From assembly GCF_000253055.1 (NCBI RefSeq), contig NC_016070.1, positions 90,001 through 122,000 on the forward strand: a stretch of 32,000 nucleotides of DNA, given 5' to 3'. The notes beneath the pieces were generated by a model. The model had not been told where the DNA came from and did no database searches. It was given only the letters and a program-made list of their open reading frames with translations. The position numbers and the translations under genes were made by a program. The DNA is from Thermoproteus tenax Kra 1 (GTDB taxonomy: Archaea > Thermoproteota > Thermoprotei > Thermoproteales > Thermoproteaceae). How positions within the stretch are numbered: position 1 is the stretch's first letter; the number at the start of each line of letters is the position of its first letter. This document shows positions 13,236 to 30,596 of the stretch, one piece after another.

Positions 13236-13502
13236 TCAGACGCACTCGTAATTGATTACGTCTCTCAATAACTGGAAGACTAGACACCTCTCCTCAGCCC
13301 CTGTGCAAGGGCCTCGGCAAGCGACGCGGTACCCCTGAACCTCGCACGACACAACCACATCCCCAACCGTGTCGGCATTTTTCACACCTACGCCATAGGC
13401 CAACGCGGCGACGAGGAGCTCTAGGGGGGATAGGCTCGTAGGAACCTCCTTGTTGTTGACGACCAAACGCCCGCGTAAATACCGAGCTTCGACACTCTTC
13501 AT
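13236..13502 (-). CDS. small OsmC-like (possibly truncated) protein
   Basis: 88 aa. SPLELLVAALAYGVG resembles the OsmC/Ohr core, but the protein is much shorter than the usual ~140 aa. Confidence 0.35.
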   Translation of the reverse strand: MKSVEARYLRGRLVVNNKEVPTSLSPLELLVAALAYGVGVKNADTVGDVVVSCEVQGYRVACRGPCTGAEERCLVFQLLRDVINYECV

Positions 13503-13528
13503 ATATTTCCTTTTGTGAATTTACTTTT

Positions 13529-14089
13529 ATGGATTCAATAGGATTGATTGCAGCTCTGGCCATACTTATAGGAGCGTGGTACGCTATTGCATCATTGATA
13601 GGAAGAAGAATAAATATAAAATCTATAAAGAAATGTAATGAACTATGTTTAATTGAAAAATATTTAGTGACAGGTACTTCTTTCTTCGTAGAATTTAAAT
13701 GCAATTGGGCAAAATATCTAGGGGTTTTTGTCCAGAGACTTCCTTGGGATAATCCATTAAATCTTGTAGCCAGTTTGATATCTCTAAGGAAGCCTATGGC
13801 GATTGTCAAAGCTGAGTTAGATGCGCCAATCCCCTGGAGTCTGGACATGTCCAGCAAGGGGGCTCTGGGACATGCCGAGGAGATAGATGGATTTTTTGTG
13901 GTGAACAGAAACACGCCTAAGAGCTTAGTTAATGAGCTTGTCGATGCATGTAAAAAGTTAGGAATAACAAGGTTGATTTTGGGCGGAAGGCCGCCAATCC
14001 AGCTGTTTGTGCAATCAGACGACTGCGCTAGAGTCCTTCAATTATCGGAAAATATAATTAAAATTATTGCTAAACATACAAAGAAGTAA
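13529..14089 (+). CDS. hypothetical N-terminally membrane-anchored protein
   Basis: 186 aa with one N-terminal hydrophobic helix (IGLIAALAILIGAWYAIASLIG). It lies in the most AT-rich part of the window. I prefer it over the antisense ORF 13294..13914. Confidence 0.5.
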   Translation: MDSIGLIAALAILIGAWYAIASLIGRRINIKSIKKCNELCLIEKYLVTGTSFFVEFKCNWAKYLGVFVQRLPWDNPLNLVASLISLRKPMAIVKAELDAPIPWSLDMSSKGALGHAEEIDGFFVVNRNTPKSLVNELVDACKKLGITRLILGGRPPIQLFVQSDDCARVLQLSENIIKIIAKHTKK

Positions 14090-14118
14090 TACTTAAAAAT
14101 AAGAATAAGATAGCTCCT

Positions 14119-15909
14119 ATGGGTTTCTTTGACACCCCGGCCCCGTATATATTGGCTGGATTAGTATTATATTTTATTACATATATGACGTATTCAAAAT
14201 ATATAGATAGAAAGATATGGAGCGCCGATCCCAATAGACCAACTCCGGCGAGGATGTATTTTGACGGCGTAGAGTATTTCCCAGTATCTAAGTACGTCTT
14301 GTTCGGATATCAGTTCAAGTCAGTCGCAGCTCTGGGCCCCATCGTGGGCCCGTTGACCGCCGTATTGTTCTACGGTTGGGTTCCGGCTCTGCTCTGGGTG
14401 ATTTTCGGCAATATGTTCATTGGGTGGGTGCAAGACTATTCGGCCATGATGATGTCCATAAGGAGCGACGGCAGATCTATGGGGCCGATAACATACAAAC
14501 TGCTCGGCGGAAGGGCCAGGACCATCTTGTTGGTATATTTGATATTCTATCTCATAATAATAACCGCCGTATTTGAGTGGACCATCGTGGACGTGCTTAA
14601 TAGAGTTCCCGGCACATTTACCGCTGTGTTGTTCGTGCTGTTGGGAGGCATAGTCTTCGGCCAACTGGTCTTCAGAATGAAGATGGACGTGCTAAAGGCC
14701 ACGGTAATAGCCTTGCTCATAGTTCTTGCAGGATATTTCTTGGTGGCCTTTGTGCCAGCGGTGAGGAGCCCGCCGACGAACTTCTTGGACAATCCAGCCA
14801 CGTTGAGCCGCTTTCCGGCACCTAAGGGCGTTAACCCGGCCACTTTGACGTGGCCTGGAACATCTACAGCTTTGTTCTGGTTGATTGTAATTTCCGTTAT
14901 CTACCTAGCGGCCTCTCTGACTACTATGCCTAAGTTTCTACTGCCTACCGTCTATGTAGGCTATCTGCCGTCAATAATAGCGCTTGTACTGGTCCTAATA
15001 GCGGCCATCGCCACTCCACTGACAGGTCTCACAATCCAACAGACGTCCCTCAAGGCACTCTACGTGGATCCCCTAGTTAATCCCCAAGGAGGTCCGATCT
15101 GGCCAATACTCTTTGTTACAATAGCGTGCGGCGCAATATCGGGGTGGCATAGCCTGATCTCCTCAGGCCTCACTTCAAAACAGCTCGAGTATGAGACAGA
15201 TGCGTTGCCCGTCGGCGGAGGCGCCATGATGACCGAAGGCGCCGTGGCCCTCTCGTCGATAGCAGCTATGATGGTGTTAGCGGCTCCGCCGCTAGGGGCC
15301 GCCGCCTATGTGGTAGGCGCTACCACGCTTACGTCAAAGCTTCTGAACGTTCCACCTATATTTATGAGTATATTGTACGGCATATTCGTCACAGTAATGG
15401 GCCTAATAACATCTATGTTGTTTGTCAGAGTCTTCAGGCTCACTATGGCGGAGCTTTTCGAGAGATCTCCTCTAGGTAATAAGTATATAGCTACTTTGAT
15501 TATACTTATATTAAGTGGCTTTTTGGCCTTCGTAGGATCTTGGACCAACTTGTGGATATTCTTTGGTGGAACAAATCAGTTGTTGGCGGCTCTTGCCCTC
15601 CTACTTGTAGCTATATTCCTTGTCAGCCAGAAGAAGCCGTCGACGTACGTATTCATACCGGGCATATTTATGGCAGTGACTACCCTCGCGGCTCTGGCGT
15701 GGGAGACCTACGTCTATGGGCTATACGCTGTATTGAACAAGCCAATAGGCGTTCAGGCTGCGGCTGCTATGTTATATGGAAACTGGGTCGTAAGTGTGTC
15801 GAACTACATCTCAGCGGCATTCGGCGCATTGCTATTAATACTAGGTATTATAATGACATACTACTTAATAAAAGGCTGGTTAAGCTACAGAGCTGAAGCC
15901 AAAAAATAA
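14119..15909 (+). CDS. cstA: carbon starvation protein CstA family transporter (peptide/pyruvate uptake)
   Basis: 596 aa and polytopic. The N-terminal region ...FGYQFKSVAALGPIVGP...GWVPALLWVIFGNMFIGWVQDY is characteristic of CstA. Confidence 0.9.
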   Translation: MGFFDTPAPYILAGLVLYFITYMTYSKYIDRKIWSADPNRPTPARMYFDGVEYFPVSKYVLFGYQFKSVAALGPIVGPLTAVLFYGWVPALLWVIFGNMFIGWVQDYSAMMMSIRSDGRSMGPITYKLLGGRARTILLVYLIFYLIIITAVFEWTIVDVLNRVPGTFTAVLFVLLGGIVFGQLVFRMKMDVLKATVIALLIVLAGYFLVAFVPAVRSPPTNFLDNPATLSRFPAPKGVNPATLTWPGTSTALFWLIVISVIYLAASLTTMPKFLLPTVYVGYLPSIIALVLVLIAAIATPLTGLTIQQTSLKALYVDPLVNPQGGPIWPILFVTIACGAISGWHSLISSGLTSKQLEYETDALPVGGGAMMTEGAVALSSIAAMMVLAAPPLGAAAYVVGATTLTSKLLNVPPIFMSILYGIFVTVMGLITSMLFVRVFRLTMAELFERSPLGNKYIATLIILILSGFLAFVGSWTNLWIFFGGTNQLLAALALLLVAIFLVSQKKPSTYVFIPGIFMAVTTLAALAWETYVYGLYAVLNKPIGVQAAAAMLYGNWVVSVSNYISAAFGALLLILGIIMTYYLIKGWLSYRAEAKK

Positions 15910-15940
15910 ACATTTTTAACGTACCCTCTTTTCTCCTTTT

Positions 15941-16189
15941 GTGGGAATCCTCAACAGGATAAGAGAGGTAATCGAGGGAATGGCGGTGCATGGACAGGCG
16001 GCCTCAATTCTTAAAATCAAGGCACAGATAGATAATTTATTCATGATAATAACACTCGGCGACATGTTAGGCATACCGCTACTGCCGCCGTATTACTCGC
16101 TTAGGTTGCTCCCCTATATGTTCCCCAACATACAGAGTTGGAAAATGTATATGCTTAGGGAGAGAGACGTCACAGATATGATAGCATGA
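15941..16189 (+). CDS. small conserved protein, paralog A (82 aa), first gene of the ATPase operon
   Basis: Shares the core LG(D/E)(M/F)LGIPLL..YY..RLLPY...K..ML.E.D with ORF 18158..18421. GTG start about 25 nt after catttttaa. ATGA overlap with the next gene. Confidence 0.65.
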   Translation: MGILNRIREVIEGMAVHGQAASILKIKAQIDNLFMIITLGDMLGIPLLPPYYSLRLLPYMFPNIQSWKMYMLRERDVTDMIA

Positions 16190-17187
16190 TAGGGCTCAAG
16201 GGCCTTCTGGAGAGAAAGCCTAAGCTTAAGGTCATTATATATGCCGGTAAGGGAGGCCTCGGCAAAACGACTTTAAGCGCGGCGACATCGCTATTGTTAT
16301 CTAGGGACAAGCGGGTCCTAGTCTTCAGTACAGACCCTCAAGCCTCCCTAAGCGATGTCTTTGAGCGCGACGTCTTTGGAAAGGGTGAGGTCCAGATAGC
16401 AGAGAACCTCTATGTATTAGAGATAGATGCCGATAAAAGAATAAATGAGTATGTGACATCTATAAAAAGAAAAATAATTGATATGTATAAGTTGGATAAA
16501 CTGCCGCCAGATCTAGAGGAGTATATAGATAGCGCGGCCGCGGAGCCTGCTATGTACGAGAGCGCGGTGTACGACGCCATGGTCGACGTCGTTTCCGAGG
16601 GAAAATACGACTATTATATCTTCGATATGCCGCCGTTTGGACACGGAATAAGGATGATCGCGATGGCCGATATCTTGAGTAAATGGGTCGAAAAGATCAC
16701 CGAGCTGAGGCAACAAGCCTACGACTACGGCAGAGTGGCCTCGTCGCTCAAGCGCGCTAAACTCACGTACGAAGACGAAATACTCAAGGAGCTGCAGTAC
16801 ATAAGAGATAGAATAGTGGCCTTCAGAAATATAATAACTAACAGAGAGAGCGCATCGTTTATGGTGGTTGTAACTCCCGAAAAAATGAGCATACTAGATA
16901 CGGAGAAGGCCATCGAGATGTTCTCCTCTCTCGGCCTAGAGGTGTCCGGCATTGTTGTAAACCAAGTCTATCCCCCCGAGCTCTCTAAGGACCCCAGGAC
17001 GCCTGAGTACATAAGGAACAGAATAGAAGAGCAGAGGAAATATATGGATGAGATACGGCGTAAGTTCGGCGACTTGGTCATTTCAGTTGTGCCTATGTTG
17101 AACAGAGAGCCCAAGGGCCTCGAGGCGCTGTCCATAGTGGCCAAAGAGCTCTGGTCCCCAAGCAGACCGTTTGAGGAGTACCTATGA
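16186..17187 (+). CDS. ArsA/Get3 (TRC40)-family P-loop ATPase, motif-complete subunit
   Basis: Deviant Walker A GKGGLGKTT, STDPQASLSDVF and switch II FDMPPFGHG. 333 aa with no cysteine at all. Confidence 0.9.
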   Translation: MIGLKGLLERKPKLKVIIYAGKGGLGKTTLSAATSLLLSRDKRVLVFSTDPQASLSDVFERDVFGKGEVQIAENLYVLEIDADKRINEYVTSIKRKIIDMYKLDKLPPDLEEYIDSAAAEPAMYESAVYDAMVDVVSEGKYDYYIFDMPPFGHGIRMIAMADILSKWVEKITELRQQAYDYGRVASSLKRAKLTYEDEILKELQYIRDRIVAFRNIITNRESASFMVVVTPEKMSILDTEKAIEMFSSLGLEVSGIVVNQVYPPELSKDPRTPEYIRNRIEEQRKYMDEIRRKFGDLVISVVPMLNREPKGLEALSIVAKELWSPSRPFEEYL

Positions 17188-18161
17188 GGGCGTTGTTGAA
17201 CTCAAACACTAAGTTCTTCTTCTTCGGCGGAAAAGGCGGCGTAGGGAAGACGGTGGTCTCGGCGGCTGTGGCTCTGTACTTCGCCGATAGGGGAGAGAAG
17301 ACTTTATTGGCCAGCTTCAACCCGGTCCACTCGCTGTCGTCGCTGTTCCAACAGGACTTAAGCGGCGGCGATATCAAGAAGGTGGTTGGGCTTGAGAACC
17401 TATACGCAGTGGAGGTAGAAATCGACGACATAATAACGAAATATAAGGAGAGGGTCAGCACGCTGTTGAGAGAGCTGTTCAAGTGGGCCGAGCTACCGGT
17501 GGACACAAAGCCGTTGGTCGATATAGCGACGACGAACCCGTCTTTCCACGAGGCGGCCGCCTTCGACAAGATGATGGACGTAGTGTTGAACCAAGGGCAG
17601 AACTTCTCGCGCATTATATTTGATATGGCCGCTGTGGCCAACGCCGTGAGGCTGATAGGGCTTTCAAAGCTCTACGGGCTGTGGCTTCAGAGGACTATAA
17701 AGATGAGGCAGGAGGCCCTATCCTTGAGATACCAGCTGGCGTTTAGGAAGGAGAAAGTTATGGAGGAGATAAAGAAGGATCCCGTATTAAACGACTTGAT
17801 AAATCTTCAAGAGAGATATATTAAAGTTAGAGAAGTATTGAAGGATCCCAACATGACTCGGTTTATCTTTGTAACTATTCCCACGATGTTGTCAATATCT
17901 GTTGTGAAGAGGTTCATAGATATGGTAAGGGCGTACGAGATACCCATAGGCGGCGTGGTGGTCAATATGGTCATCCCGCGGGAGGAGGCAGAGAGAGACC
18001 AGACAGGCTTCCTTAAGTCTAAAAGCGAGGAGCAAGCCAAGAACTTGGAGCTTATAGACCGCTATTTCGGCGACTTAGTGCTGAGTAGAGTAAAACTGTT
18101 CCCAGAAGATATAGTGGGTATAGAGAGATTACGTCAATTTGTCAATGAGCTTATCAAATGA
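17184..18161 (+). CDS. ArsA/Get3-family P-loop ATPase, motif-degenerate subunit
   Basis: Walker A GKGGVGKTV is intact. The TDP motif reads SFNPVHSL (Asp to Asn), and switch II reads FDMAAVANAV, with no P..GH. There is no cysteine. ATGA overlaps at both ends. Confidence 0.9.
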   Translation: MRALLNSNTKFFFFGGKGGVGKTVVSAAVALYFADRGEKTLLASFNPVHSLSSLFQQDLSGGDIKKVVGLENLYAVEVEIDDIITKYKERVSTLLRELFKWAELPVDTKPLVDIATTNPSFHEAAAFDKMMDVVLNQGQNFSRIIFDMAAVANAVRLIGLSKLYGLWLQRTIKMRQEALSLRYQLAFRKEKVMEEIKKDPVLNDLINLQERYIKVREVLKDPNMTRFIFVTIPTMLSISVVKRFIDMVRAYEIPIGGVVVNMVIPREEAERDQTGFLKSKSEEQAKNLELIDRYFGDLVLSRVKLFPEDIVGIERLRQFVNELIK

Positions 18162-18421
18162 AAATTAAACAGATAATATATGATTTCTTATTTGGAGCTT
18201 TTTATCTAGATCTCTATAAGGAAGTTGCAAAGATCCATAAACAATTGTTGTTGGTTACAGAGTTTTTGGTCTTCGGCGAATTCCTGGGGATCCCCCTCCT
18301 CAGCTCTTACTACGCGATGAGGCTGTTGCCCTATTTCGTCGGAGAGCTATACGATTTCAAGTCCGAGATGCTCAAGGAGAAGGACCTCTTCGAGGAGATA
18401 GCGCACGTGGATGTCCACTGA
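18158..18421 (+). CDS. small conserved protein, paralog B (87 aa)
   Basis: Paralog of 15941..16189 (FGEFLGIPLLSSYYAMRLLPYF...KSEMLKEKD). ATGA overlap with the preceding ATPase gene. Confidence 0.7.
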   Translation: MKIKQIIYDFLFGAFYLDLYKEVAKIHKQLLLVTEFLVFGEFLGIPLLSSYYAMRLLPYFVGELYDFKSEMLKEKDLFEEIAHVDVH

Positions 18422-18860
18422 AGAATACTCTTGGCACACAATAGCTGTCGGCAATAGCATCCTGGGCGTGTATAACTTTATAGTGCTTGCGGCGCCTCCC
18501 GACTGGAAGCTCATTATTATGCCCATGGCCTCCGACATCTTCTCCTACGTGTCCAAAGACGGCGCCAAATGGGTGAGGGACGGCGAGGTAAAACACTTCA
18601 TAAAGGGGGGAAGAGAGTTCTTCGAGCTTGAGATCAAGGTCAAGCCGGGCAACAAGGCCAGAGCTGCCGGCTCTGCGGTAGAGTTCGGCGGCCACAGTGG
18701 AGTCTATTCAGTGGCCGAGGAGGGTCTTATCAAGAGGAAGAAGGCGTTAATAATAGAGGCCTATTGTCCCGAGACGGATAGAACGATCACAATAAAGATA
18801 AAGGGGGAGAGGGCGCCTCTAGAGGTCTTGAAATACGTTAAATTCAGTAGATGTCACTAA
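18411..18860 (+). CDS. hypothetical protein (149 aa), last gene of the ATPase operon
   Basis: Overlaps the previous ORF by 11 nt, consistent with translational coupling. No family recognised. Confidence 0.55.
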   Translation: MSTEEYSWHTIAVGNSILGVYNFIVLAAPPDWKLIIMPMASDIFSYVSKDGAKWVRDGEVKHFIKGGREFFELEIKVKPGNKARAAGSAVEFGGHSGVYSVAEEGLIKRKKALIIEAYCPETDRTITIKIKGERAPLEVLKYVKFSRCH

Positions 18861-19708
18861 GTTCTCTCGAATATCGAGAAATAATACGGCGTTTTGGAGA
18901 ACCTCTGCACTCTCGTTAGACCGGCCAACGGCAACAGATCTTCTATCATATCGGCGGTGAACACGTTGTTTCCGCTCCATAGAAAGACAGTCGCTATTGA
19001 GGGTAGCGCCGCTGCGTCCGTATTGCCTACGATGACCTTGCCGCCGCGCCTTAGACGGTCGACAAGACATTTGACCTCCCTGTATGGGTCTATGAACCAG
19101 TGGAAGGACTCAAACAATATCAAAGTATCATATTCGACTCTGCTTATTTCACAGGCGCTCGCGGCCCTCTCTAGAGACGTTATCCCCACCTCCGCTAGAT
19201 CTTTGATGGGCTCCTCACGTCTCTCGTATGTCTTTATATCGAGACCGGCCCTCCTCAGCTCTTCAGCCAGCGGGAATACCTCGCCTAGGAAGGGCGCCAA
19301 GGCTCTGCCTGTCGCTACTTTTTTGACCATTTCTATATAGATGTTCATAATGCTATAGTACCAAGGCGACATCAACATGGAGATCCTTAGGAGCTCAGCC
19401 ATTTCGTCCAGCCTGTTCAGAGATCGAGTAACAGAATCGTGGAAGTCCACAAACTGGACCCCCAGCGTTGACCTCAAAGAGGGCGGCCTCGGGCTCGCCT
19501 TGGGCTCCCCCCTCTGATTTACTTTGTTGCTCAACAGAAGCACCTTAAACAAAGAGTTGGCATATCTGTCGTTGCGACCTCGTAAAACGTTCCACCAGCT
19601 GAGCGCGTAGTACGCGCTTGTATCCAGCAAATCTTTAATGGGGCCTATTAGGGACAGCCTCTGTGCTACAGCCATCGTACGGTCATCCTCTGAAAACAGA
19701 CTAACCAT
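18857..19708 (-). CDS. class I SAM-dependent methyltransferase-like protein (motif I degenerate)
   Basis: The C-terminal half (YDTLILFESFHWFIDPYREVKCLVDRLRRGGKVIVGN) resembles methyltransferase type 11/12 post-I/III motifs. The glycine-rich motif I is not obvious. Confidence 0.45.
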   Translation of the reverse strand: MVSLFSEDDRTMAVAQRLSLIGPIKDLLDTSAYYALSWWNVLRGRNDRYANSLFKVLLLSNKVNQRGEPKASPRPPSLRSTLGVQFVDFHDSVTRSLNRLDEMAELLRISMLMSPWYYSIMNIYIEMVKKVATGRALAPFLGEVFPLAEELRRAGLDIKTYERREEPIKDLAEVGITSLERAASACEISRVEYDTLILFESFHWFIDPYREVKCLVDRLRRGGKVIVGNTDAAALPSIATVFLWSGNNVFTADMIEDLLPLAGLTRVQRFSKTPYYFSIFERT

Positions 19709-19716
19709 CTACTTCT

Positions 19717-20067
19717 TTAATTCATAAACATTTTTAATTTTTTAACTAAATATTCTGGGTTTTTAACGGGACCTTTATGTACTAGTCTTCTATTAAATAT
19801 AATCAACGGAACTTTGCCTGTTCTATATTTGGCCATGAGGTACAGCCCCCTCAGAGTTAGAGGGTTCGTAAATCTGACCCTAAACGAGCCGTTGAGACGC
19901 GACAAAGCCACCAATATTGCCTCAAAGTCGCTATCGCTCTTTTGCCCAAGATCTTCCGTCAACTCTATCTTAAACGCCTTAGCCACACTGTCGCACGTTC
20001 TACAGATACCGGCCCTAGTGGGGACAAACATAACGACCTCGAGCAGAGGCGCCTCCTGGGCGTCCAT
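19717..20067 (-). CDS. thioredoxin-fold CxxC protein (ArsD / DUF1462-like by eye)
   Basis: 116 aa. A beta1-like [16 protein letters not shown] (CxxC) and a C-terminal [26 protein letters not shown], arranged like ArsD/YuzD-type thioredoxin-fold proteins. Confidence 0.5.
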
Positions 20068-20077
20068 GCTCTTAATG

Positions 20078-20095
20078 TTATTTTTATTAAAAACC
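20078..20095. promoter_or_regulatory. AT-rich bidirectional promoter element (ttatttttattaaaaacc)
   Basis: Lies between the divergent starts 20067 (minus) and 20111 (plus), about 19-24 nt from each. Confidence 0.45.
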
Positions 20096-20110
20096 TTCTG
20101 CGAAGATCAT

Positions 20111-21250
20111 ATGATCCCCATTTCGGTGATGGTCGCCGGGATTGGAACCACTTCGTTCAAGATAAAGGGTAGATACGGCGTTGAGAGGCCGAGCGGCTTC
20201 GCGGCGCCCCTGAGGCCTGCAGTCACTTGGAACATCACCAAAAGGTGCAATCTCAAGTGTCTCCACTGTTATGTCGACGCAGGTCCCGCCGACTCCAGCG
20301 AGCTGACTACGGAGGAGGCCCTAGACGTAGTAGATCAGATGGCCGAGATAGGAGTGCCGATGGTTATATTCTCGGGCGGCGAGCCTCTGCTGAGGCCCGA
20401 CTTCTTTGACGTCGCGTCCTATGCAGGCAGCAAAGGGATAAAGCTCGTCATCTCGACTAACGGCACTCTAATAAGCAAAGAGGTCGCTAAAAGGCTGAAG
20501 GACCTTGGCTTCTACTACGTGGGCATAAGCCTCGACTCGGTAGACGGAGAGTACCACGACTACTTCAGAGGAGTGAAGGGCGCCTTCTCATCGGCGCTAT
20601 TGGGCATAAAGAACGCCGTGAATGCAGGCCTCGACGTAGGTCTCCGGTTCACAGTTACCGCGAAGAACATAGCCGAGGTTCCCAAATACCTGGAGTTCGC
20701 GGCCTCGTTGGGCGTGAGGAGAGTGACCTTCTACCATCTATCAGCAGCGGGGCGCGCCCAGAGGTTGGACAAGAGCTGGTATTATACCCCCGAGCAGTAT
20801 GTCGCCTTTATACACACGTTAATAGAATACGCGAGGAAATACGCAGGCGAGATAGAGATCGAGACCACGCTGGCTCCCTACGACGGCGTGTATATTGCGC
20901 TCACGTTGGGGAACGGCTCCGAGGAGTACCTCAAGTTCGTTGAGTCAGCGGGAGGCTGTGGAAGGAAGATGATCTCGATATATCCAAACGGCGACGTCTA
21001 TCCTTGCCAGTTCCTCGACTTCTACCGTCTGGGCAACGTGAGAGAGAGGAGGCTCAGAGAGATCTTAAGGCCAGATGCCGTAGAGCCCTTCGTCAACACT
21101 GAGAAGTATCTGAGGGGGCCTCGGTGCAGCGCCTGCGCCTACAAGAGGTACTGCAAGGGCGGCGACAGGGCAAGGGCCTACTACCTGACCGGAGACATGT
21201 GGGGCGACGACCCTCTGTGTCCTCTGCCGTCCATTCTGGCCCGGAACTAG
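20111..21250 (+). CDS. radical SAM protein with C-terminal SPASM domain (AhbC/AhbD/NirJ-like)
   Basis: CNLKCLHC (Cx3Cx2C), a GGEPLL motif, and C-terminal Cys clusters (GGCG...YPCQF...[14 protein letters not shown]...DPLCP). I prefer ATG 20111, about 24 nt after the TATA, over the track start 19814, which overlaps the divergent gene. Confidence 0.85.
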
Positions 21251-22305
21251 GCGGCCCCGTGCGTTGAGACGGCTTGTTGGCCCTTGTTGTGTGATCTGCC
21301 CAAGTCCTCTACGGCGAATTTCAAGGCGGCGGCTGCCCTCTCCACATCCGGTACGCGTATGGCCTCGTCCTCTGTGTGGGCAAGCTTGGGATCGCCGGGC
21401 CCGAAAGCCGCTATGTTTTTCGTCAGCTTGATCAACAGGTTGAAGTCGGCCGTTCCATATTTTTTGCTCAACTTGGGCTCAACGCCTATCTTCAACAGCC
21501 CCCTCACAAGCGCCCTGGCCGCGGGGTTCGTCGGGCTCACTTCGGCTGGGTCTACGCACGTCCTCACCACGGCAGGCAACCCCTCGAGCATCTTGAGTAG
21601 TTCCTCGCACGTGTGGCCCGGCGGAATCCTCACGTCCAGCACGGCTGCGCACTCCACTGGGACCTTGTTGGGGGCGTCGCCGCATCTCACCACAGTGGGC
21701 GTCACAGTGAAGTCGTTGTACCTTTCGCCGTGTCTCAACGTCTCCTTAACCTTCAAGTAGGCGTTGTACAGCTCCTCGAACGGATTCCCATATATTGGGC
21801 TGGAGGCGTGGCCGCCCCTTGTGTTAATCCTGAGCTCCACTTTGCCCCCGCCTCTGTAGGCATATGCTACGTGTAGATCAGTGGGCTCGCCCACGTAGAT
21901 GTAGTCGGGCCGCGGGGGCCCGCCCCTCAGTAGCTCCTCTGTGCCCACGCTGTCGTCTTCCTCAGCTGTGACCAGCGTGAGCACCAGAGTGCCGCTGGGA
22001 TTGGCCGTTCTGAAGGCCTCGAGATATGCCACAAGGGGGCCCTTATCGTCGACGGCCCCCCGCCCCCTCACCACGTCGCCCTCATCTCTCACCTCAAGCG
22101 GCCCAGCGACTGTGTCCATATGTGCGTGAAGCCATATGACCGGCTGGCCCCGCCCCCTCACTGCGATCACGTTGCCGGCCGAGTCTATCCATGCATCATC
22201 GGCGTGGTCTCTGGCGATACCCAACAGGAACTTCGCCAGCTCGCCCTCCCCATGCGAGGGGCTATATATGCTGAGCGCGCGCAACAATAGGCCCTTTAGG
22301 TCCAT
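21247..22305 (-). CDS. lysK: [LysW]-lysine/[LysW]-ornithine hydrolase (M20 family, ArgE/LysK)
   Basis: 352 aa. M20 motifs HAHMDTV and GRGAVDDKG. It sits in a lysW/X/Y/Z cluster. A TATA lies about 25 nt upstream. Confidence 0.85.
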
Positions 22306-22370
22306 GGCCTCCTAATAGAAACGGAATATAAAAATTAGGCGGAAGTTCGGCGCACTCCGTGGGAGTTAAG

Positions 22371-22380
22371 TTTTTATATA
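22371..22380 (+). promoter_or_regulatory. TATA-like box (tttttatata) of the lysX-like/lysY/lysZ operon
   Basis: Its centre is about 22 nt upstream of ATG 22398. Confidence 0.55.
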
Positions 22381-22397
22381 GGCTCGGTCGGGCCCCT

Positions 22398-22466
22398 ATG
22401 GAATTTGCGGGGAAAGCGGGGCCAGCGGGGCGAAGATATATATCATCTCCGAGAAGCCCGAGCTAG
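22398..22466 (+). promoter_or_regulatory. 22-codon leader ORF (MEFAGKAGPAGRRYISSPRSPS) with three tandem GCGGGG+codon units; candidate -1 frameshift sensor
   Basis: GCGGGGAAA, GCGGGGCCA and GCGGGGCGA at 22407-22433. The leader frame is +1 relative to the downstream enzyme frame, which is open from 22382 but has no ATG, GTG or TTG before 22478. Confidence 0.55.
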
Positions 22467-23083
22467 GGGAGAGGCTTTTGGCCAAGTTTATATCGGCCCG
22501 GGGTCTCTCAGCCGAGATAGTTGGCCTTGAGGGCGGCATCTCCTCGCCGGAGGGGCTCGCCGTAATTAGGACTAGGAACCAGTACTTGGGAGCGACCTAC
22601 GCCGCTGTATTTAGGCGGGCTGTTAACCAGGCCCACGCCATTTATAATGCCTTGAACAGACTCTACTGGTTGCCCAAGTTCGGCCCGCCCTTCATGGCGT
22701 TCGTCGAAGAGGACGCCGTAGAGAAAGTTGAGTTCGGCCCGCCCTGGCTCTTGGCTACTGCGTGGCGCCTCGGGCTTGACAGCGTAGTGACGAGCGTTGA
22801 GGGGGCCAAGAGCGTGGTGGAGCACCGCTCCTACATGAGGAATCCCCTGGCCAAGGCCAGCGTAGTGATGCCCAAGCCCAGGGAGGTCAAAAGGGTCTTC
22901 GCCGTGGCAGGCATGTCCGACGGAATAGTGGACGAACTCTTGAGGGCCACAGGCTTGAGATACGCCGAGGTGGCCCTGGGCGTGTACGAGGACGGCGAGC
23001 GCGTCATAGACGTCGACCCCATCCCCGAGCTCGACGAGGCCCGCGCAAGGCTCTTGGCAGAATTTCTGGCGTCGGAGACATGA
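22398..23083 (+). CDS. short, divergent RimK/LysX/ArgX-like protein (expression appears to need a -1 shift from ATG 22398)
   Basis: The enzyme frame begins ...AKIYIISEKPELGERLLAKFISARGLSAEIV, which resembles a pre-ATP-grasp N-terminus. The C-terminus ...GLRYAEVALGVYEDGERVIDVDPIPEL resembles the end of an ATP-grasp. It occupies the first slot of the lysY-lysZ operon. It is only about 215 aa and lacks an obvious central ATP-grasp domain. Confidence 0.45.
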
Positions 23084-24135
23084 AGGTCTGTATAATAGGC
23101 GCATCGGGGTTCACGGGGGGCGAGCTCCTGAGAATACTTCTCAGCCACAGCGGAGTGGAGGTCGTCTGTGCCACGTCTAGGAAGTTCAAGGGCGAGTACG
23201 TCTACAGAGTGCACCCAAATCTGAGGGGGTTCACAAACCTCAAGTTTGTGGAGCCGAGCATAGACGTAGCCCTTAAGGCCGACGCCGTGTTCTTGGCGCT
23301 TCCTCACGGCGAGTCTGTCAAGTGGGTCCCCCAGCTCTACGAACACGGCCTGTACGTCGTAGATCTCAGCGCAGACTTCAGACTGAAGGACCCTAACGCC
23401 TACGTAGAGTGGTACAGATGGCCTCAGCCCCATCCCTACCCCGATCTGCTTAAGAGGGCCGTCTACGGGTTGCCCGAGTTGCACAGAGAGGAGCTCCCCG
23501 GCGCTAAGTTGATCGCATCGCCGGGCTGCACAGCGACGGCGTCCATCATGGCTCTGGCGCCTCTCGCAAAGGAGGGCCTCATAGACTCCGGCCCCATCGT
23601 CGTCGACGTCAAGATGGGCTCCTCGGGCGCCGGAGCAGAGGGCTCAGTGTTGGACATGCACAGCCACAGGACGTACGTGATAAGGCCCTACGAGCCCGTG
23701 CACCACAGACATACGGCTGAGGTCGAGCAAGAGCTCACTAGGCTGGCCGGCAGAGAGGTAAAAGTTGCCTACACGCCGCACGCAGTGGATGTTGTCAGAG
23801 GCATTCTCTCGACGGGGCACGTCTTTACTGAGAAGGACGTGGAGGAGCCCTCCCTCTGGAAGGCCTATCGATCTCTATACGGAGACAGCAAGTTCGTGAG
23901 AATAGTGAAGGACAAGATAGGGCTTGCGCGCTACCCGAATATAAAGTACATCTTGGGCACTAATATAGTGGACGTCGGCTTCGAGATAGATAGAAGGATG
24001 AGGAGGATAGTGGCGTTCGCAGCCCTAGACAACCTCGTCAGAGGCGCCGGCGGACAGGCAGTGCAAGCCTTCAATATAGCTGTGGGCTTCCCTGAGGACG
24101 AAGGACTTAGATATATACCGCCCCACCCGATATGA
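23080..24135 (+). CDS. lysY: [LysW]-aminoadipyl/glutamyl-phosphate reductase (ArgC family)
   Basis: [18 protein letters not shown] Rossmann start and the catalytic SPGCTATA motif. ATGA overlap with the upstream gene. Confidence 0.9.
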
Positions 24136-24917
24136 TAATAGTAGTCAAGTTGGGCGGCTCTGTAGTCTGCAAGGACCCCTCAAAGGCCATAGCGGACTTA
24201 GCCAAATACGCCGATGTGGCAGTCGTAGTACATGGGGGCGGCTGTATGGTGAACGAGGTGATGAAGGCGATGGGGCTCCAACCCAAGTTTCTCACGCATC
24301 CCGGCGGAGTAGTCAGCAGATTTACCGACTATGAGACATTGAGGGCCTTCGTGATGACCATGATGTGGATAAACAAGAACATAGTGGCCTCTCTGGCATC
24401 GCTCAGAGTGCCCGCGCTAGGTCTCTCAGGCGCCGACAACATGGTGTTGAGGGCTAAGAGGAAGGAGAAAGTGATAATAGTCGACGAGAGGGGCAGACAG
24501 AGGGTCGTCGATGGAGGCTACAGCGGCAAGATCACTGAGATAGACGTCAAAGCGCTTCTGCCGCCGCCGCTCAAAGTGTTGGCGCCGATCGCCGTATCGG
24601 AGAAGGGCGAGCTCCTGAATATAGATGGAGATCAAGTGGCCTTTGAGATAGCCTCGAGGCTCATGAGCAAACTGGTGATATTGAGCGACGTTGACGGTTT
24701 GATCATAGGGGGAAAAGTCGTGGGCAGACTCACGCCCCAGGAGGCCCTCGAGCTGGCCAAGTCGGACGAGGTCAAGGGAGGCATGAAGAGGAAGTTGATC
24801 GCGGCAGCCGAGGCGGCCAAAAGCGGAGTAGAGACCATAATATACAACGGTCTCGTCGAGTCACCCATAGAGAAGGCCCTCGCCGGAGCGGGTACTCATA
24901 TTATACCTAGTTCCTAA
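24132..24917 (+). CDS. lysZ: [LysW]-aminoadipate/glutamate kinase (ArgB family)
   Basis: IVVKLGGSV and VVVHGGG amino-acid-kinase motifs. ATGA overlap with lysY. Confidence 0.9.
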
Positions 24918-24961
24918 TTAAAGGGAAGAAAAATTTAAATACTATTTAAAAAAGGACTAAT

Positions 24962-25147
24962 ATGGCTAAAGTAAAGCTAACGGCAGTATGTAAAGTATGT
25001 GGTAGCGAGATAGAGCTTCCCGAGGACGTGATGGACGGCGAGATCACTTCGTGTCCCACGTGCGGCACACGTTATATTGTCAGACTGAAGGGCGAGAAAG
25101 TCGAGCTGGAGGAGTTCAAGGGGGACGTGGAGGACTACGGAGAATAA
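24962..25147 (+). CDS. lysW: amino-group carrier protein LysW
   Basis: 61 aa. Zinc ribbon CKVCGS...CPTCG and an acidic C-terminal tail ending EDYGE (LysW-type EDWGE). It has its own TATA about 25 nt upstream. Confidence 0.9.
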   Translation: MAKVKLTAVCKVCGSEIELPEDVMDGEITSCPTCGTRYIVRLKGEKVELEEFKGDVEDYGE

Positions 25148-25165
25148 TCCTCGCTTTTTATCAAC

Positions 25166-25175
25166 ATTTTAATAC
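25166..25175 (+). promoter_or_regulatory. TATA-like box (attttaatac) of argG
   Basis: Its centre is about 23-24 nt upstream of ATG 25194. Confidence 0.55.
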
Positions 25176-25193
25176 GAGCTATTAAGCCCCTCC

Positions 25194-25232
25194 ATGCCCT
25201 CGGGGCGAGAAAGATCAGTAGAATCGCGTTAG
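25194..25232 (+). promoter_or_regulatory. 12-codon leader ORF (MPSGRERSVESR) with UCG GGG CGA; candidate -1 frameshift sensor for arginine
   Basis: ATG 25194 is +1 relative to the argG frame. The G-run 25202-25205 is followed by the Arg codon CGA. 3 of the 12 leader codons are Arg. Confidence 0.55.
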
Positions 25233-26404
25233 CGTATTCGGGCGGTTTGGACACCACTGTTGCGATAAAGTGGCTATCCGAGAAGTATAACGCTGAGGTC
25301 ATAACAGTGACTGTAGATGTGGGCCAGGAGGAGGACTTCCAAGAGGTCGAGTCTAGAGCGTATAAAGCGGGCGCGGCGAAACACTACACTATAGACGCCA
25401 AGAGGGAATTCGCCGAGGAATATATAGCTAGAGCGGTGCTGATGAACGCGATGTACGAGGGGAAATATCCCCTCGGGACAGCCCTCGCGAGGCCTCTGAT
25501 TGTGTCGAAGACCGTCGAGGTAGCAAGGCGCGAGGGGGCAGACGCAATAGCCCATGGGAGCACCAGTAAGGGCAACGACCAAGTGCGTTTCGATGTGACG
25601 GCCAAGGCGTTGGCCCCCGATCTAGAGATCTTGGCGCCAGCCAGAGTGTGGGGCATGGGGAGGGAGCAAGAGATCGACTACGCGAGGAGACACGGCATAC
25701 CTATACCGGAGGCCCACAAGAAGTACAGCATCGACGAAAACTTGTGGACGCGCTCCATTGAGGGAGGGCCTGTCGACGACCAGAGAGCTGAGCCGCCCGA
25801 GGACGCCTTTAAGTGGACTGTACAGCCCGAGAAGGCGCCTGACCAGCCGACATATGTCGAGATAGAGTTCTCCAACGGGCTCCCTAGGTCGATAAACGGA
25901 GAGCGCGTGGACATGCTCCAAGCAGTCAGAGCGTTGAACAACGTGGGAGGTCTGAACGGCGTTGGGCGCATTGACCACATTGAGAGCAGGCTCGTGGGAT
26001 TCAAGAGCCGCGAAGTATACGAGGCGCCGGCGGCGGTGATACTCTACGAGGCCCACCGCGATTTAGAGAAGTTGGTCCTCACGCCGAGGGAGCTACGGTT
26101 TAAACACACTGTGTTGGACCCCCTATGGGCAGATCTAGTGTATCAAGGCCTGTGGGTTGAACCGTTGAGGCAGTCGCTGGAGGCCGCCGCCAGAGAGATG
26201 GAAAGATGGGTGGACGGCTGGGTGAAAGTTAAGCTGTATAGAGGGTCTCTACAGGTGGTCGCCCGCGACTCTAAATACGGAACATACAGCAGAGATATAG
26301 CGGATTACTCCACGGGGTGGTATCCCTCAGACGAGGAAGCGCGCGGCTTCATAGAGATGTGGTCGCTCCACAGCCTCCTGGCATTGAAAAAACGTGGTCA
26401 ATAA
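25194..26404 (+). CDS. argG: argininosuccinate synthase (body in frame from 25202; appears to need a -1 shift from ATG 25194)
   Basis: RIALAYSGGLDTTVAIKWL PP-loop N-terminus, plus the GSTSKGNDQVRF and ENLWTRS(I)EGG motifs. The track start TTG 25247 would delete the AYSGG part of the ATP-binding motif. There is no in-frame ATG, GTG or TTG upstream of it. Confidence 0.9.
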
Positions 26405-26554
26405 ATTCAAAGCTAAATATTATAATTCCAATAATAAATACAGATATAGAATAAAAAGATTTTAATATTATTAAAAATAAAAATAGTTTGCAAATTTAGA
26501 TATTACTCTATATAAGCGATGAAAGAGATATAAAGAGGATGAAAGGGGTCTTCG

Positions 26555-26725
26555 ATGGGGTCAGGATCGCCCAAGCTGAACACTGTGGTGTGTCCCAACT
26601 GCAAACGCCCCGTGAGACCGAAGGAGTGTAGCAGAAAAAGCTTGTCGAAAAGATACGTGTTAGTGACGTACTGTTGCCCGAGGTGTGGTATAGAGCTGAT
26701 CACTGAACATATAGAGGTTACATAA
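26555..26725 (+). CDS. small zinc-ribbon protein (56 aa; below the ORF-track size cutoff)
   Basis: MGSGSPKLNTVVCPNCKRPV...YCCPRCGIELITEHIEVT has two CPxC pairs about 27 residues apart. ATG 26555 lies about 24 nt after gatataaagagg. Confidence 0.4.
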   Translation: MGSGSPKLNTVVCPNCKRPVRPKECSRKSLSKRYVLVTYCCPRCGIELITEHIEVT

Positions 26726-26780
26726 AGTCAGCGAGGATTATATACTAGCCACCTATTTTTAAAAACAGATCGGCCCGACT

Positions 26781-27323
26781 GTGGAGATTCTGTTGCTCCT
26801 CCACGGTTCCAAGGATCCCAGATATCGCGAATCAGTAGAGAGATTCGCGGGGAGGCTCGGGCTCAAGTACGCGTTCCTCGAGGGCTTTGAGCCGAGACCC
26901 GGCGTATTATATCTCCCCATCTTCGTCGCCCCAGGCGCCGACTACAGAAAAGCTCTGTCGTTGGCAAACCTCAAGGCGCCGCCATTGATTAGATGGCCGG
27001 GCTTCGCCGACTATCTGAGATCGCTTAGGGCAGACGTCTATATATTTCACGGAAGCGACGAGCCTGAGTACATAAACGAGGTCGCCTCATTGGGGCTCAG
27101 ATTCGCTTTCATCGAGGGCGAGCCCTCTCTGAAGTCTGTGGGCTGTAGAGGGCTTGGGGCGCCTGTAGTGTTGACGCGCGGCATTATCTACGACAGAGCC
27201 TCCGAGTTGTGGAGGGAGGCGGGCTGTCGCTACGAGCTTCTGCCGCCACTCTTCGAACAGGAGGGCTTCGTACAGTATTTCTCCTCAGCGCTCAGCTCGT
27301 TGTTGGCCAAGATTCAACAATAG
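26781..27323 (+). CDS. CbiX/SirB-like sirohydrochlorin chelatase (small type)
   Basis: 180 aa. The (V)EILLLLHGSKDP start resembles the CbiX HGS motif, and there is a second IFHGSDEP repeat. GTG start about 22 nt after ctatttttaaaaac. Confidence 0.5.
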   Translation: MEILLLLHGSKDPRYRESVERFAGRLGLKYAFLEGFEPRPGVLYLPIFVAPGADYRKALSLANLKAPPLIRWPGFADYLRSLRADVYIFHGSDEPEYINEVASLGLRFAFIEGEPSLKSVGCRGLGAPVVLTRGIIYDRASELWREAGCRYELLPPLFEQEGFVQYFSSALSSLLAKIQQ

Positions 27324-28284
27324 CGGCGATCTGTCTGCCGACCTCCTCAGTGGTGGCCCGCCCTCCTATGTCCGGCGTAGCTACCCCGCGCCTCAAGGCC
27401 TCCTCAACGGCGCCTCTAACAGCGTTTGCAGCGTCTTGGCGGCCCATCCATTCGAACATCATTGCGGCGGACAATATGGTCGCTATCGGATTGGCTATCC
27501 CCTTTCCAGCTATGTCGAAGGCCGCCCCGTGGATCGGCTCGAACATGGCCTTTTTGTCTCCAATATTCGCCGAGGGCGCCAGCCCCAAGCTACCTGCCAC
27601 TTGTGCGGCGAGATCGGTGAGGATATCCCCGTATTGGTTCGTCGTCAACACAACGTCGAAGCGCGAGGGATTCCTTACAAGCTCCATCGCTGCTGCGTCT
27701 ACGTACATTTCCTCCACTTGAAGCCCATCGAGCTCCCCCCTGGCCACATCCCTAAAGAAGGCGTCGACCACCCTCAACACATTGGACTTTGTGACGATAG
27801 TCACTTTCCGCCTCCTCATTTCGGCGTACCTCCTCGCCACTCTAGCCACCCTCGCCGTGCCCTCCCTCGTTATGACCTTCAGAGCAATCGCCACATCGCC
27901 CACTCTATATTCGGCGCCCACATAGACATCTTCGACGTTCTCCCTCACGAAGACGCAATCGATGGGCTTGACAGCAGGCACGCCGGGGAGGTTCTTTGCA
28001 GGCCTTATGTTGGCGTACAACACGTACTTCATCCTTATCGCGGACGTTACATCGTAGGCGGTCTCGCCCACGGGGCCCTTCAGTACGGCGTCGGCGGAGT
28101 CCACGATCTTCCACGCCTCGTCGGGCATAGGTTTGCCATACTTCCTCGCGGCTACGTCGCCCGCCTCCACGACCTTTATATCGAGCGGTATTGAGAAACG
28201 CCGCGCGGCCGCCTCTATCACCTTCAGCGTGGCCGACACTACCTCGGGCCCTATGCCGTCGCCCGGGATTACGGCAAGCTTCAT
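27292..28284 (-). CDS. homoisocitrate / 3-isopropylmalate dehydrogenase (beta-decarboxylating dehydrogenase family)
   Basis: MKLAVIPGDGIGPEV start, and the NQYGDILTDLAA and EPIHGAAFDIAGKGIANP motifs. ATG 28284 lies about 24 nt after TTTAAAA. The track start 28314 overlaps that TATA. Confidence 0.9.
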   Translation of the reverse strand: MKLAVIPGDGIGPEVVSATLKVIEAAARRFSIPLDIKVVEAGDVAARKYGKPMPDEAWKIVDSADAVLKGPVGETAYDVTSAIRMKYVLYANIRPAKNLPGVPAVKPIDCVFVRENVEDVYVGAEYRVGDVAIALKVITREGTARVARVARRYAEMRRRKVTIVTKSNVLRVVDAFFRDVARGELDGLQVEEMYVDAAAMELVRNPSRFDVVLTTNQYGDILTDLAAQVAGSLGLAPSANIGDKKAMFEPIHGAAFDIAGKGIANPIATILSAAMMFEWMGRQDAANAVRGAVEEALRRGVATPDIGGRATTEEVGRQIAAIVESWPTTS

Positions 28285-28402
28285 AACGCCAGAAAATGTG
28301 TGAGTTTTAAACATAGAGCGCGCCCATCTGGGGACTCGGGGGCCCCAGCCACCTAGCTCGATCGCCTAAGGAGCTCGACAAGCCGATGTTCTATAGAGCC
28401 GC

Positions 28403-29068
28403 CTATCGGCATAGGGCCTCCGCGAGTAGGCCCGAGAGCTTGAGCGCCTCCTCCCTCCTTAAGTACCGCCCCCTCCTAGGCACCACAAGGGCCCTCTCTG
28501 TCCCGTCTGTCAGACTCGCCGGTATGACGGCGAGGACGCTCTCGAGAGACAAGAGCTCGTCTAAGGCAGGGCCCAGAGCTCTGGCGTAGCTCTCAGGCAA
28601 GATTGCCAAGACTGCCCCGAACCTCTTCAGTAAGGCTTGCGTCCTCTCCGGGACCCCCCTCTCCAGAGACCACCTGGCCAGCTCATCGCGGCGTAGAGCG
28701 TTTAAGGTTGCCTCGTAGGGGATAATGGGCTCATCCCAGCGGATCAAGCCGTATCGAGCGCTTACGATGAACAGCTCAGCTCTGGCACATTGTCGCACTC
28801 TATAGAAGATCGACCTCACTTGCGCGAAGGATCCACCGTACATCTCTACGGCGGGCTTAATAAAGCTCTGTAGCGCCTCCCTATATGTGTTCTCCCTCTC
28901 CAGGTCGAAGCCGGGCACGCCCAAGCCTCTGACCTTCAGCGCCTCCACGACGGAGCTCCAGTCCACTTTCTTCCTCTTAGTGCAGTGGGCCAGTATCAAT
29001 AGATCCCTAGACTTGAACCTCTCCCTCAACTGTTCCGCCGTTATGTCCTCTATTGAGACGAGAGGCAT
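28403..29068 (-). CDS. hypothetical protein (DUF6884-like pattern by eye)
   Basis: 221 aa. LILAHCTKRKK...PAVEMYGGSF...LFIVSARYGLIRWDEPIIPYEATL resembles the C..K / Y.G / SA.YGL / PY signature, recalled from memory. It has its own TATA-like box. Confidence 0.45.
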   Translation of the reverse strand: MPLVSIEDITAEQLRERFKSRDLLILAHCTKRKKVDWSSVVEALKVRGLGVPGFDLERENTYREALQSFIKPAVEMYGGSFAQVRSIFYRVRQCARAELFIVSARYGLIRWDEPIIPYEATLNALRRDELARWSLERGVPERTQALLKRFGAVLAILPESYARALGPALDELLSLESVLAVIPASLTDGTERALVVPRRGRYLRREEALKLSGLLAEALCR

Positions 29069-29116
29069 CGACCAAAAGCCTCTACTATATTTTAGCTCTG
29101 GGGCGCTACAGCTGAA

Positions 29117-30534: not shown

Positions 30535-30553
30535 GGCGGCTGAACCGACCCAC

Positions 30554-30561
30554 TATATAAA
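30554..30561 (-). promoter_or_regulatory. TATA box (TTTATATA on the minus strand) of the homocitrate synthase gene
   Basis: Its centre is about 23-24 nt upstream of ATG 30534. It directly abuts GTG 30553, so that GTG is unlikely to lie within the transcript. Confidence 0.55.
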
Positions 30562-30596
30562 CCTAACTCGCGGAGGAGAGTCTATATAGAAAATAG

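Follow-up and report, generated by a model that had tools for sequence, protein, structure and literature searches.

What do two Get3/ArsA-like ATPases do in an operon with two small helical proteins? The question is raised by a stretch of 32,000 nucleotides (nt) of the archaeon Thermoproteus tenax Kra 1 (contig NC_016070.1, positions 90,001 to 122,000), which we call the window. An earlier note on this DNA had described a mirror-symmetric operon of five genes, encoding a small protein, two ATPases, a paralogous small protein and a protein of 149 amino acids (aa), and had suggested a heterodimeric Get3-like chaperone in which each subunit has its own small partner. The five open reading frames (ORFs) are real, all lie on the plus strand, and the first starts with GTG. 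However, the operon begins earlier, with the gene of a CstA-family permease, whose stop codon lies 31 nt before the start of the first small-protein gene on the shared strand. It is near certain that the locus is the T. tenax copy of a conserved cstA-cstX-arsA-homologue operon with six co-oriented genes, which encode, in order, the CstA permease, CstX-A, ATPase 1, ATPase 2, CstX-B and p149 (Table 1). Because CstA is directly upstream, the likeliest function shifts from a free-standing chaperone to a transporter-associated ATPase.

The coordinates bear out the overlaps that had been reported between the five downstream genes, of which the first three are 4 nt long (ATGA) and the last is 11 nt long. 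Identical 4-nt and 11-nt overlaps are found in the orthologous operon of Pyrobaculum calidifontis, where the gene order is CstA, DUF7990, ArsA, ArsA, DUF7990 and a 143-aa protein. The window CstA is strongly hydrophobic along its whole length and shares 38% identity with E. coli CstA in the N-terminal core (E = 9e-32); the RefSeq product name of the E. coli protein is ‘pyruvate transporter’. We found no solved CstA structure. None of the window ORFs scanned encodes ArsB, Acr3, ArsR or ArsC, and no ars operon context (ArsB/Acr3, ArsR, ArsD, ArsC) was found in the window. The earlier remark that these genes are absent is therefore right, but it misleads, since a CstA-family permease stands directly upstream, as it does at 66 of 71 related loci.

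Clusters of this kind have been described before. Castillo and Saier (2010; Int J Microbiol 2010:187373; PMC2963123) used SEED and report cstA clustered with arsA homologues in 26 genomes, a ~90-aa protein with a single transmembrane segment, named CstX, in 24 of those 26, and a ~210-aa protein, CstY, in five archaea. Their Pyrobaculum arsenaticum example has two adjacent ArsA homologues that are 31% identical, Par1 (334 aa) and Par2 (327 aa), and two CstX proteins, the paralogues Par11 and Par12. They put forward the ArsA homologues as the energy source of CstA, linked to it by CstX, reported that the CstA, CstX and ArsA trees co-evolve, and stated that CstX never occurs without CstA. We equate the window small proteins with this CstX by size, position and the matching Pyrobaculum operon; Par1 and Par2 have the lengths of the P. 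calidifontis orthologues. The small family, which the earlier note did not recognise, is on these grounds CstX and, judged by its homologues, DUF7990 (PF25952). Both the gene cluster and the leading hypothesis are thus already published (PMC2963123), and the small family is already in Pfam. Our analysis adds that the degeneracy of ATPase 2 is invariant, that CstX is exceptionally conserved and predicted to form a hairpin, that p149 represents a family and a CxxC protein is a further partner, and that the rule tying CstX to CstA has exceptions.

The extent of the module can be read from a census of related loci. A pattern scan with one genome per species gave at least 587 confirmed CstX relatives, and the census comprises the 80 loci closest in CstX, the best 80 of these at least 587; counts over 81 refer to the loci examined. 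All stop-to-stop ORFs were translated and searched with the six window proteins. The loci belong to Thermoproteota, Bathyarchaeia, Desulfobacterota, Chloroflexota, Actinomycetota, Acidobacteriota, Methylomirabilota/Rokubacteria, Nitrospirota, Spirochaetes, Alphaproteobacteria and WOR-3. Genes of the ATPase 1 and ATPase 2 types lie 3' of CstX at all 69 loci with enough downstream sequence, so that the pairing of the small family with an ATPase pair, which the earlier note had proposed to check by such a census, holds throughout. CstA lies within 2.5 kb upstream of CstX at 66 of the 71 loci with enough upstream sequence, and downstream at one more, and the order CstA then CstX is kept across Thermoproteota, Bathyarchaeia and at least eight bacterial phyla.

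The number and placement of CstX genes are more variable. There is one copy at 40 of the 81 loci and two at another 40. Bacteria with two copies carry them as a tandem that separates CstA from ATPase 1; among the census loci, only Thermoproteota have the ATPases flanked in mirror symmetry, and at one Pyrodictiaceae locus a p149-CstX-B pair lies upstream of CstA. Mirror symmetry is therefore not the general layout, and a single CstX with two ATPases at 40 loci speaks against one dedicated small partner per subunit as a general rule. The module core is CstA, one or two copies of CstX, ATPase 1 and ATPase 2. The median identity between a window protein and its bacterial orthologues is highest for CstX (54%) and lower for ATPase 1 (47%), ATPase 2 (38%) and CstA (37%), a comparison that is biased because the loci were chosen by CstX similarity.

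The small proteins are genuine and related to each other, as had been supposed. CstX-A and CstX-B align with 33% identity (BLASTP E = 3e-15) over a shared core LG(D/E)xLGIPLL..YY..RLLPY, and neither contains cysteine. Their standing as real genes is supported by 360 homologues in a word-indexed protein database, by the at least 587 species-level matches and by about 54% identity to bacterial loci. All 120 of the 360 homologues that were listed, including ones that are 90-94% identical, are labelled PF25952, and by homology the window proteins can be placed in DUF7990. Across the family, the core G-D-x-L-G-x-P-L-L-P-P-Y-Y-S-L-R-L-L-P-Y is nearly invariant and is followed by W-K-R...R-E-R-D-x-T-D; in CstX-A, the invariant residues are G40, G44, P46, Y51, Y52, R55, P58, K68 and D76. 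AlphaFold2 (AF2), run on the monomer with 71 sequences, predicts a two-helix hairpin in which helices 2-42 and 50-81 meet at the conserved GIPLLPP turn, with a mean predicted local distance difference test score (pLDDT) of 76.

The hydrophobic segment of CstX lies in the middle of the protein and not at its C-terminus, and a stretch of about 20 conserved charged residues follows. Its 19-residue Kyte-Doolittle maximum is 1.58 in CstX-A and 1.99 in CstX-B, which is borderline for a membrane span, and an invariant acidic residue sits in its midst. By median identity, CstX is the most conserved component of the module. The invariant polar and proline positions would suit a specific interface with several partners or a functional site, unlike a generic Get3 client. 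We found no match of CstX to any solved structure, by fold or by sequence. A candidate identity with the small protein YbdD/YjiX (DUF466), which in E. coli is the partner of CstA, was rejected (hhalign probability 0.4%).

The two ATPases each have one ArsA_ATPase domain (Table 1) and are 30% identical to each other. TIGR00345, the TRC40/GET3/ArsA subfamily model, which also covers ArsA, gives 230 and 209.5 bits, both above the cut-off of 135. The two proteins contain no cysteine at all, as had been seen before, and they lack both the metalloid-binding Cys triad of ArsA and the CxxC zinc clasp of Get3/TRC40; the CDFC and CEFC motifs of Methanocaldococcus jannaschii Get3 (MjGet3) and Methanothermobacter thermautotrophicus Get3 (MtGet3) have no counterpart in them. 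Assignment to ArsA proper was rejected, given single domains, no Cys triad, no ars genes found in the window, and TIGR04291 scores of 97 and 108 bits against a cut-off of 650. Membership in the BagAB family was rejected as well, with best scores of 48 bits against 400 for NF053622 (BagA) and 33 bits against 521 for NF053621 (BagB).

An alignment of 70 ATPase 1 and 73 ATPase 2 orthologues shows how the two types differ. The P-loop is intact in both (GKGG[LV]GKT; GKGGLGKT in the window ATPase 1). ATPase 1 has the switch I motif S-x-D-P-Q-A-S-L and the switch II motif D-x-x-P-x-G-H, with 69-70 of 70 orthologues agreeing at key positions. In ATPase 2, switch I reads S-x-N-P-V-H-S-L, with asparagine in place of the canonical aspartate in 73 of 73 orthologues, and switch II reads D-x-A-x-x-A-N-A instead of D-x-x-P-x-G-H, with A-N-A in 72-73 of 73. 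MjGet3 and Chlamydomonas ARSA1 have the canonical motifs at these altered positions. In yeast Get3, the switch I aspartate (D57) is reportedly needed for hydrolysis, and D57N is said to trap the ATP-bound state. Because asparagine occupies this position, and in view of the D57N work, ATPase 2 probably binds ATP and barely hydrolyses it. Castillo and Saier noted a conserved aspartate replaceable only by asparagine, which the passages of PMC2963123 consulted do not assign to one member of each pair.

These motif states are independent of lineage, with DPQAS and PxGH in type 1 and NPVHS and AxxANA in type 2. The differentiation of ATPase 1 from ATPase 2 is ancient, which fits an obligate heterodimer. 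The ATPases are a co-inherited, differentiated pair of single-domain proteins that very probably form a heterodimer, and the invariant changes in ATPase 2 point to an asymmetric one with a degenerate site, which would recall the two unequal halves of ArsA, A1 and A2.

We propose, as a model to which we give an even chance, that a Get3-like heterodimer tethered by CstX drives or gates transport by CstA. ATPase 1 and ATPase 2 would form an asymmetric heterodimer with the hydrolytic site in ATPase 1; ATPase 2, which lacks the catalytic aspartate and the switch II Gly-His, would probably still bind ATP. The heterodimer would dock on the cytoplasmic face of CstA through the helical hairpin of CstX, which would act as the coupling element. 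By binding and hydrolysing ATP, the pair would drive or gate CstA, which belongs to a family that transports pyruvate and possibly peptides; the direction of transport and the substrate are our inference. ArsA offers a parallel, in that it turns the secondary carrier ArsB into an ATP-driven pump; that ATPases of this family can energise a secondary carrier is established in the case of ArsA/ArsB.

We favour this coupling model because the synteny spans two domains of life, with the ATPase pair at 69 of 69 loci and CstA upstream at 66 of 71, and because the start/stop overlaps are kept between Thermoproteus and Pyrobaculum. The two ATPase types show differentiated motifs whatever the lineage, CstX is the most conserved part and carries invariant polar and proline residues in its hydrophobic tip, and AF2 gives it a two-helix hairpin; each of these adds to our preference, as does the finding of no ars genes in the window. 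Independent comparative genomics had earlier arrived at this proposal, on the ground that the CstA, CstX and ArsA trees co-evolve (PMC2963123).

The motif states can also be read in another way. The ATPase pair could be an ATP/ADP-dependent regulator that gates CstA according to energy or carbon status, with CstX as a tether, by analogy with the nucleotide-binding subunits of Trk/Ktr-type systems. A conserved, degenerate and probably non-hydrolysing ATPase 2 site is typical of a sensing or regulatory site, and the E. coli members of the CstA family work as proton-coupled symporters without any ATPase. This nucleotide-sensing explanation, which we consider unlikely, shares the synteny evidence with the coupling model. 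ATPase 1, however, retains all canonical hydrolytic motifs in essentially all orthologues, which suggests turnover, although switch-type regulators also hydrolyse. Nothing in evidence of this kind, drawn from sequence, distinguishes energising from gating.

Structural relationships bring in a different possibility. The best solved relatives of the ATPases are M. jannaschii Get3 (3ug6; 3.9e-59), which is the closest to ATPase 1, M. thermautotrophicus Get3 (3zq6; 2.5e-54) and Chlamydomonas ARSA1 (5zme). The alignment with MjGet3 is colinear through the groove-forming helical subdomain/TRC40-insert, with about 5 residues missing. The 3ug6 and 3zq6 proteins reportedly bind tail-anchored proteins in vitro. 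The heterodimer might accordingly be a dedicated Get3-like chaperone or insertase that captures the CstX hairpin or CstA segments in its groove and delivers them to the membrane, so that ATP would serve biogenesis and not transport. The kinship with the two archaeal Get3 structures, the nearly gap-free alignment through the groove-forming helices and the TIGR00345 scores above cut-off all suit such a role, as do the moderate hydrophobicity of the CstX core and the occurrence of the CstX/ATPase core without adjacent CstA at two loci described below. Get3 clients, however, are recognised by generic hydrophobicity, whereas the tip of CstX has near-invariant Gly, Asp, Pro, Tyr and Arg across two domains and no other part of the system is as conserved as CstX. 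Moreover, its hydrophobic segment is central, with the charged stretch following, a permanent operon-encoded targeting factor for one 82-aa protein would be uneconomical, and the near-universal linkage to CstA would go unexplained. We regard this explanation as fairly unlikely. The original suggestion of a heterodimeric Get3-like chaperone with small partners keeps its Cys-free, differentiated pair and its conserved partner, but it had missed the linkage to the permease.

Several observations weigh against the coupling model. Two loci, an Actinomycetota metagenome-assembled genome (L012, 2432-5070) and Thermoflexus (L069), have the arrangement CstX-CstX-ATPase1-ATPase2; no CstA was found at L012 within about 2.4 kb upstream and 5 kb downstream, or at L069 within roughly 5-7 kb on each side. 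The ATPase/CstX core is thus separable from CstA, at least on the chromosome. In T. tenax, the spacer between cstA and cstX-A (15910-15940) contains TTTTTAA and then a T-rich run (CTCTTTTCTCCTTTT), and it could be an archaeal internal promoter or terminator; given this T-rich 31-nt spacer, cstA may not always be co-transcribed with the five genes that follow it. The ATPases appear closer to archaeal Get3 (3ug6, 3zq6) than to ArsA and align colinearly with it through the helices that form the Get3 client groove, which would suit a chaperone role equally well. To our knowledge, there is little precedent for driving an uptake carrier with ATP when no binding protein is present. Of at least 587 loci, the census takes in only the 80 most similar in CstX. 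Finally, the literature searched contained no later paper on prokaryotic CstX, and in the papers searched we found no experimental test of any step of the mechanism. CstA is not mentioned in the 2019 survey of Get3-like proteins (PMC6593721). Upstream of the L012 cluster, on the minus strand (1648-2301), runs a divergent gene for a 217-aa protein whose N-terminus has a hydrophobic segment.

The two loci also bear on the idea that adjacency to CstA is fortuitous or reflects co-regulation, with CstX and the ATPases performing an unrelated cytoplasmic task, for example stress protection like that by BagAB. The absence of CstA nearby at L012 and L069 and the distant similarity to BagA/BagB are in keeping with this. 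However, CstA adjoins at 66-67 of 71 loci, in the order CstA then CstX, in Thermoproteota, Bathyarchaeia and at least eight bacterial phyla; co-evolution of the trees has been reported (PMC2963123); and the BagA/BagB scores are far under the cut-offs. We therefore hold chance adjacency to be very improbable.

Beyond the core, CstX-B, p149 and a CxxC protein are lineage-restricted accessory parts. The p149 sequence is 100% identical to a T. tenax hypothetical protein, and a profile search of 1.84 billion representatives gave a family of 68 clusters of 140-200 aa. Within it no variation is seen at C119, C148 and R124, and very little at H95 and the C-terminal H149. AF2 predicts an all-β protein of ten strands (pLDDT 94.3, predicted template-modelling score 0.88), for which fold matches are borderline (Tsi3, BT_1490 and PsbP/Mog1-like folds, template-modelling scores of about 0.5). 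A family hidden Markov model finds p149 at 13 of the 81 loci, 12 in Thermoproteota and one in Anaerolineae, always at the cluster, and in the 12 Thermoproteota loci that have a B-type CstX this copy is next to the p149 homologue. We take p149 to be a lineage-restricted accessory that possibly binds metal. By size, the family (143-185 aa) differs from CstY (~210 aa). C-termini resembling metal ligands recur at this locus: CstX-B ends in HVDVH (18404-18421), with EFDVH in Pyrobaculum, and the end of p149 (18852-18860) has an invariant Cys and a nearly invariant His. The name cory-CC-star, of a distantly related small family considered below, refers to a terminal Cys-Cys; meanwhile, the ATPases have lost the zinc-clasp cysteines.

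The CxxC family emerged from clustering the flanking ORFs. It flanks or lies inside the cluster at 23 of the 81 loci, in archaea and bacteria; its CxxC is invariant and one proline is conserved. The window member, whose gene lies 857 nt beyond p149, matches Pfam Thioredoxin_3 below cut-off (E = 0.0087) and no Pfam or NCBIfam family at cut-off. Further examples are at L008 (10031-10417), L015 (3342-3824) and L050 (9405-9818). By analogy, the CxxC protein might act like ArsD or as a redox sensor of the system.

Table 1. Features of the cstA-cstX-arsA-homologue locus, in window coordinates
Feature	Description	Position	Strand	Basis
Promoter-like stretch	AT-rich, 5' of cstA; candidate archaeal TATA element	14085..14118	+	TTAAAAATAA about 17-26 nt before ATG, read from sequence
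CstA	CstA-family permease, 596 aa; first gene of the conserved module	14119..15909	+	Pfam CstA 2.7e-96
CstX-A	DUF7990 protein by homology, 82 aa; small helical hairpin (predicted)	15941..16189	+	Homologues labelled PF25952; AF2
ATPase 1	Get3/ArsA-like, 333 aa; canonical catalytic motifs	16186..17187	+	ArsA_ATPase 1.6e-70
ATPase 2	Get3/ArsA-like, 325 aa; degenerate catalytic site	17184..18161	+	ArsA_ATPase 1.2e-60
CstX-B	Divergent CstX-A paralogue, 87 aa; ends HVDVH	18158..18421	+	33% identity to CstX-A
p149	Accessory all-β protein (predicted), 149 aa; conserved Cys/His	18411..18860	+	No family assigned
CxxC protein	Thioredoxin-fold protein, 116 aa; recurrent accessory gene	19717..20067	-	Locus census; weak Pfam Thioredoxin_3

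Several neighbouring ORFs surround these features. Directly 5' of cstA is a 186-aa ORF (13529-14089, plus strand) without a family match, whose counterparts occupy the equivalent place in Pyrobaculum (32% identity, E = 3e-22) and at about 8 Thermoproteales loci; a minus-strand ORF that overlaps it (13294-13914) is probably no gene. On the other side, a 283-aa ORF (18857-19708, minus strand) is convergent with p149, their ends overlapping by 4 nt. It has a sub-threshold methyltransferase match (E = 0.02) and lies between p149 and the CxxC protein, as it does at other Thermoproteus loci. A radical SAM/SPASM-domain protein follows (19814-21250, plus strand); the TTG start listed for it overlaps with the CxxC gene opposite, and the true one therefore probably lies further downstream. 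Genes of the radical SAM type are also found near the Pyrobaculum cluster, and the census shows no conserved linkage. From 21247 to 31085 the window holds amino-acid biosynthesis genes, an ordinary housekeeping context: M20 peptidase, semialdehyde dehydrogenase, amino-acid kinase, argininosuccinate synthase, an isopropylmalate/homoisocitrate-type dehydrogenase, a homocitrate-synthase-like protein with an AsnC ligand domain, and the aconitase small subunit.

Since 2010 the system has stood as a prediction; its small and tractable gene set is now well defined, with CstA, CstX, a catalytic ATPase and a degenerate ATPase. If the coupling model is true, the ArsA/ArsB principle, by which an accessory ATPase makes a secondary carrier a primary pump, would extend to nutrient transporters across archaea and bacteria, and a large group of prokaryotic ‘Get3-like’ ATPases of debated function would gain a physiological role. 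A broader view, which we offer tentatively and hold to be doubtful on balance, is that CstX could be a new type of coupling subunit, which would dock a Cys-free, catalytically asymmetric Get3-like pair onto a CstA-family carrier. Together they would make up a widespread class of nutrient transporter, driven or gated by ATP (at least 587 species-level genomes, two domains), that is neither ABC nor P-type. The CxxC proteins and the Cys/His β-proteins might then be substrate or redox sensors comparable to ArsD, and the prokaryotic ‘Get3-like’ groove would serve transporter coupling and not tail-anchor targeting.

How does this system compare with those already known? The operons of Castillo and Saier are the closest, in particular that of P. 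arsenaticum: like the window, it has CstA, two CstX paralogues, two ~330-aa ArsA homologues about 31% identical, and no ars genes. Neither the p149 family nor the thioredoxin-fold partner is described in that paper, which places CstY only in other archaea, and its statement that CstX never occurs without CstA contrasts with L012 and L069, which have no CstA nearby.

Among small proteins, the cory-CC-star model (NF041419) is the only curated model that detects CstX-A and CstX-B (E = 4.6e-9 and 8.8e-6), with 36 and 26 bits, far short of its cut-off of 80. At their C-termini stand ...DMIA and ...HVDVH, whereas cory-CC-star proteins end in Cys-Cys, and cory-CC-star is probably a distant branch of a CstX superfamily. 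The E. coli cstA-ybdD pair likewise consists of a CstA-family gene followed by a small ORF, but YbdD (DUF466) is unrelated to CstX and no ATPases are present.

The analogy that had been drawn with BagA/BagB of M. tuberculosis (Rv3679/Rv3680) holds for the adjacency of two single-domain Get3/ArsA-like ATPase genes. However, it is distant, with 48 bits where the cut-off is 400 and 33 where it is 521; the similarity is found only in the N-terminal P-loop region, and an actinomycetotal CstX cluster is no closer. Archaeal Get3 (3ug6, 3zq6) shares with the window ATPases the best structure matches, the colinear helical subdomain and TIGR00345. Yet archaeal Get3 and eukaryotic Get3/TRC40 are homodimers with a CxxC zinc clasp and two catalytic protomers, whereas the pair described here would be a heterodimer with no cysteine and one degenerate site, encoded in a transporter operon. 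We know of no Get1/2-like receptor for an ATPase pair of this type.

ArsA/ArsB of E. coli R773 provides the functional counterpart. Here as there, an ATPase of the same superfamily has no transmembrane segment, has two homologous but unequal nucleotide sites and is linked to a secondary carrier, a link that we propose in the present case. ArsA is a single two-domain chain of ~583 aa with a Cys triad, encoded in an ars operon. In the system described here, its place would be taken by two Cys-free chains of ~330 aa each, with CstA instead of ArsB/Acr3 as the carrier and with an additional small subunit, CstX.

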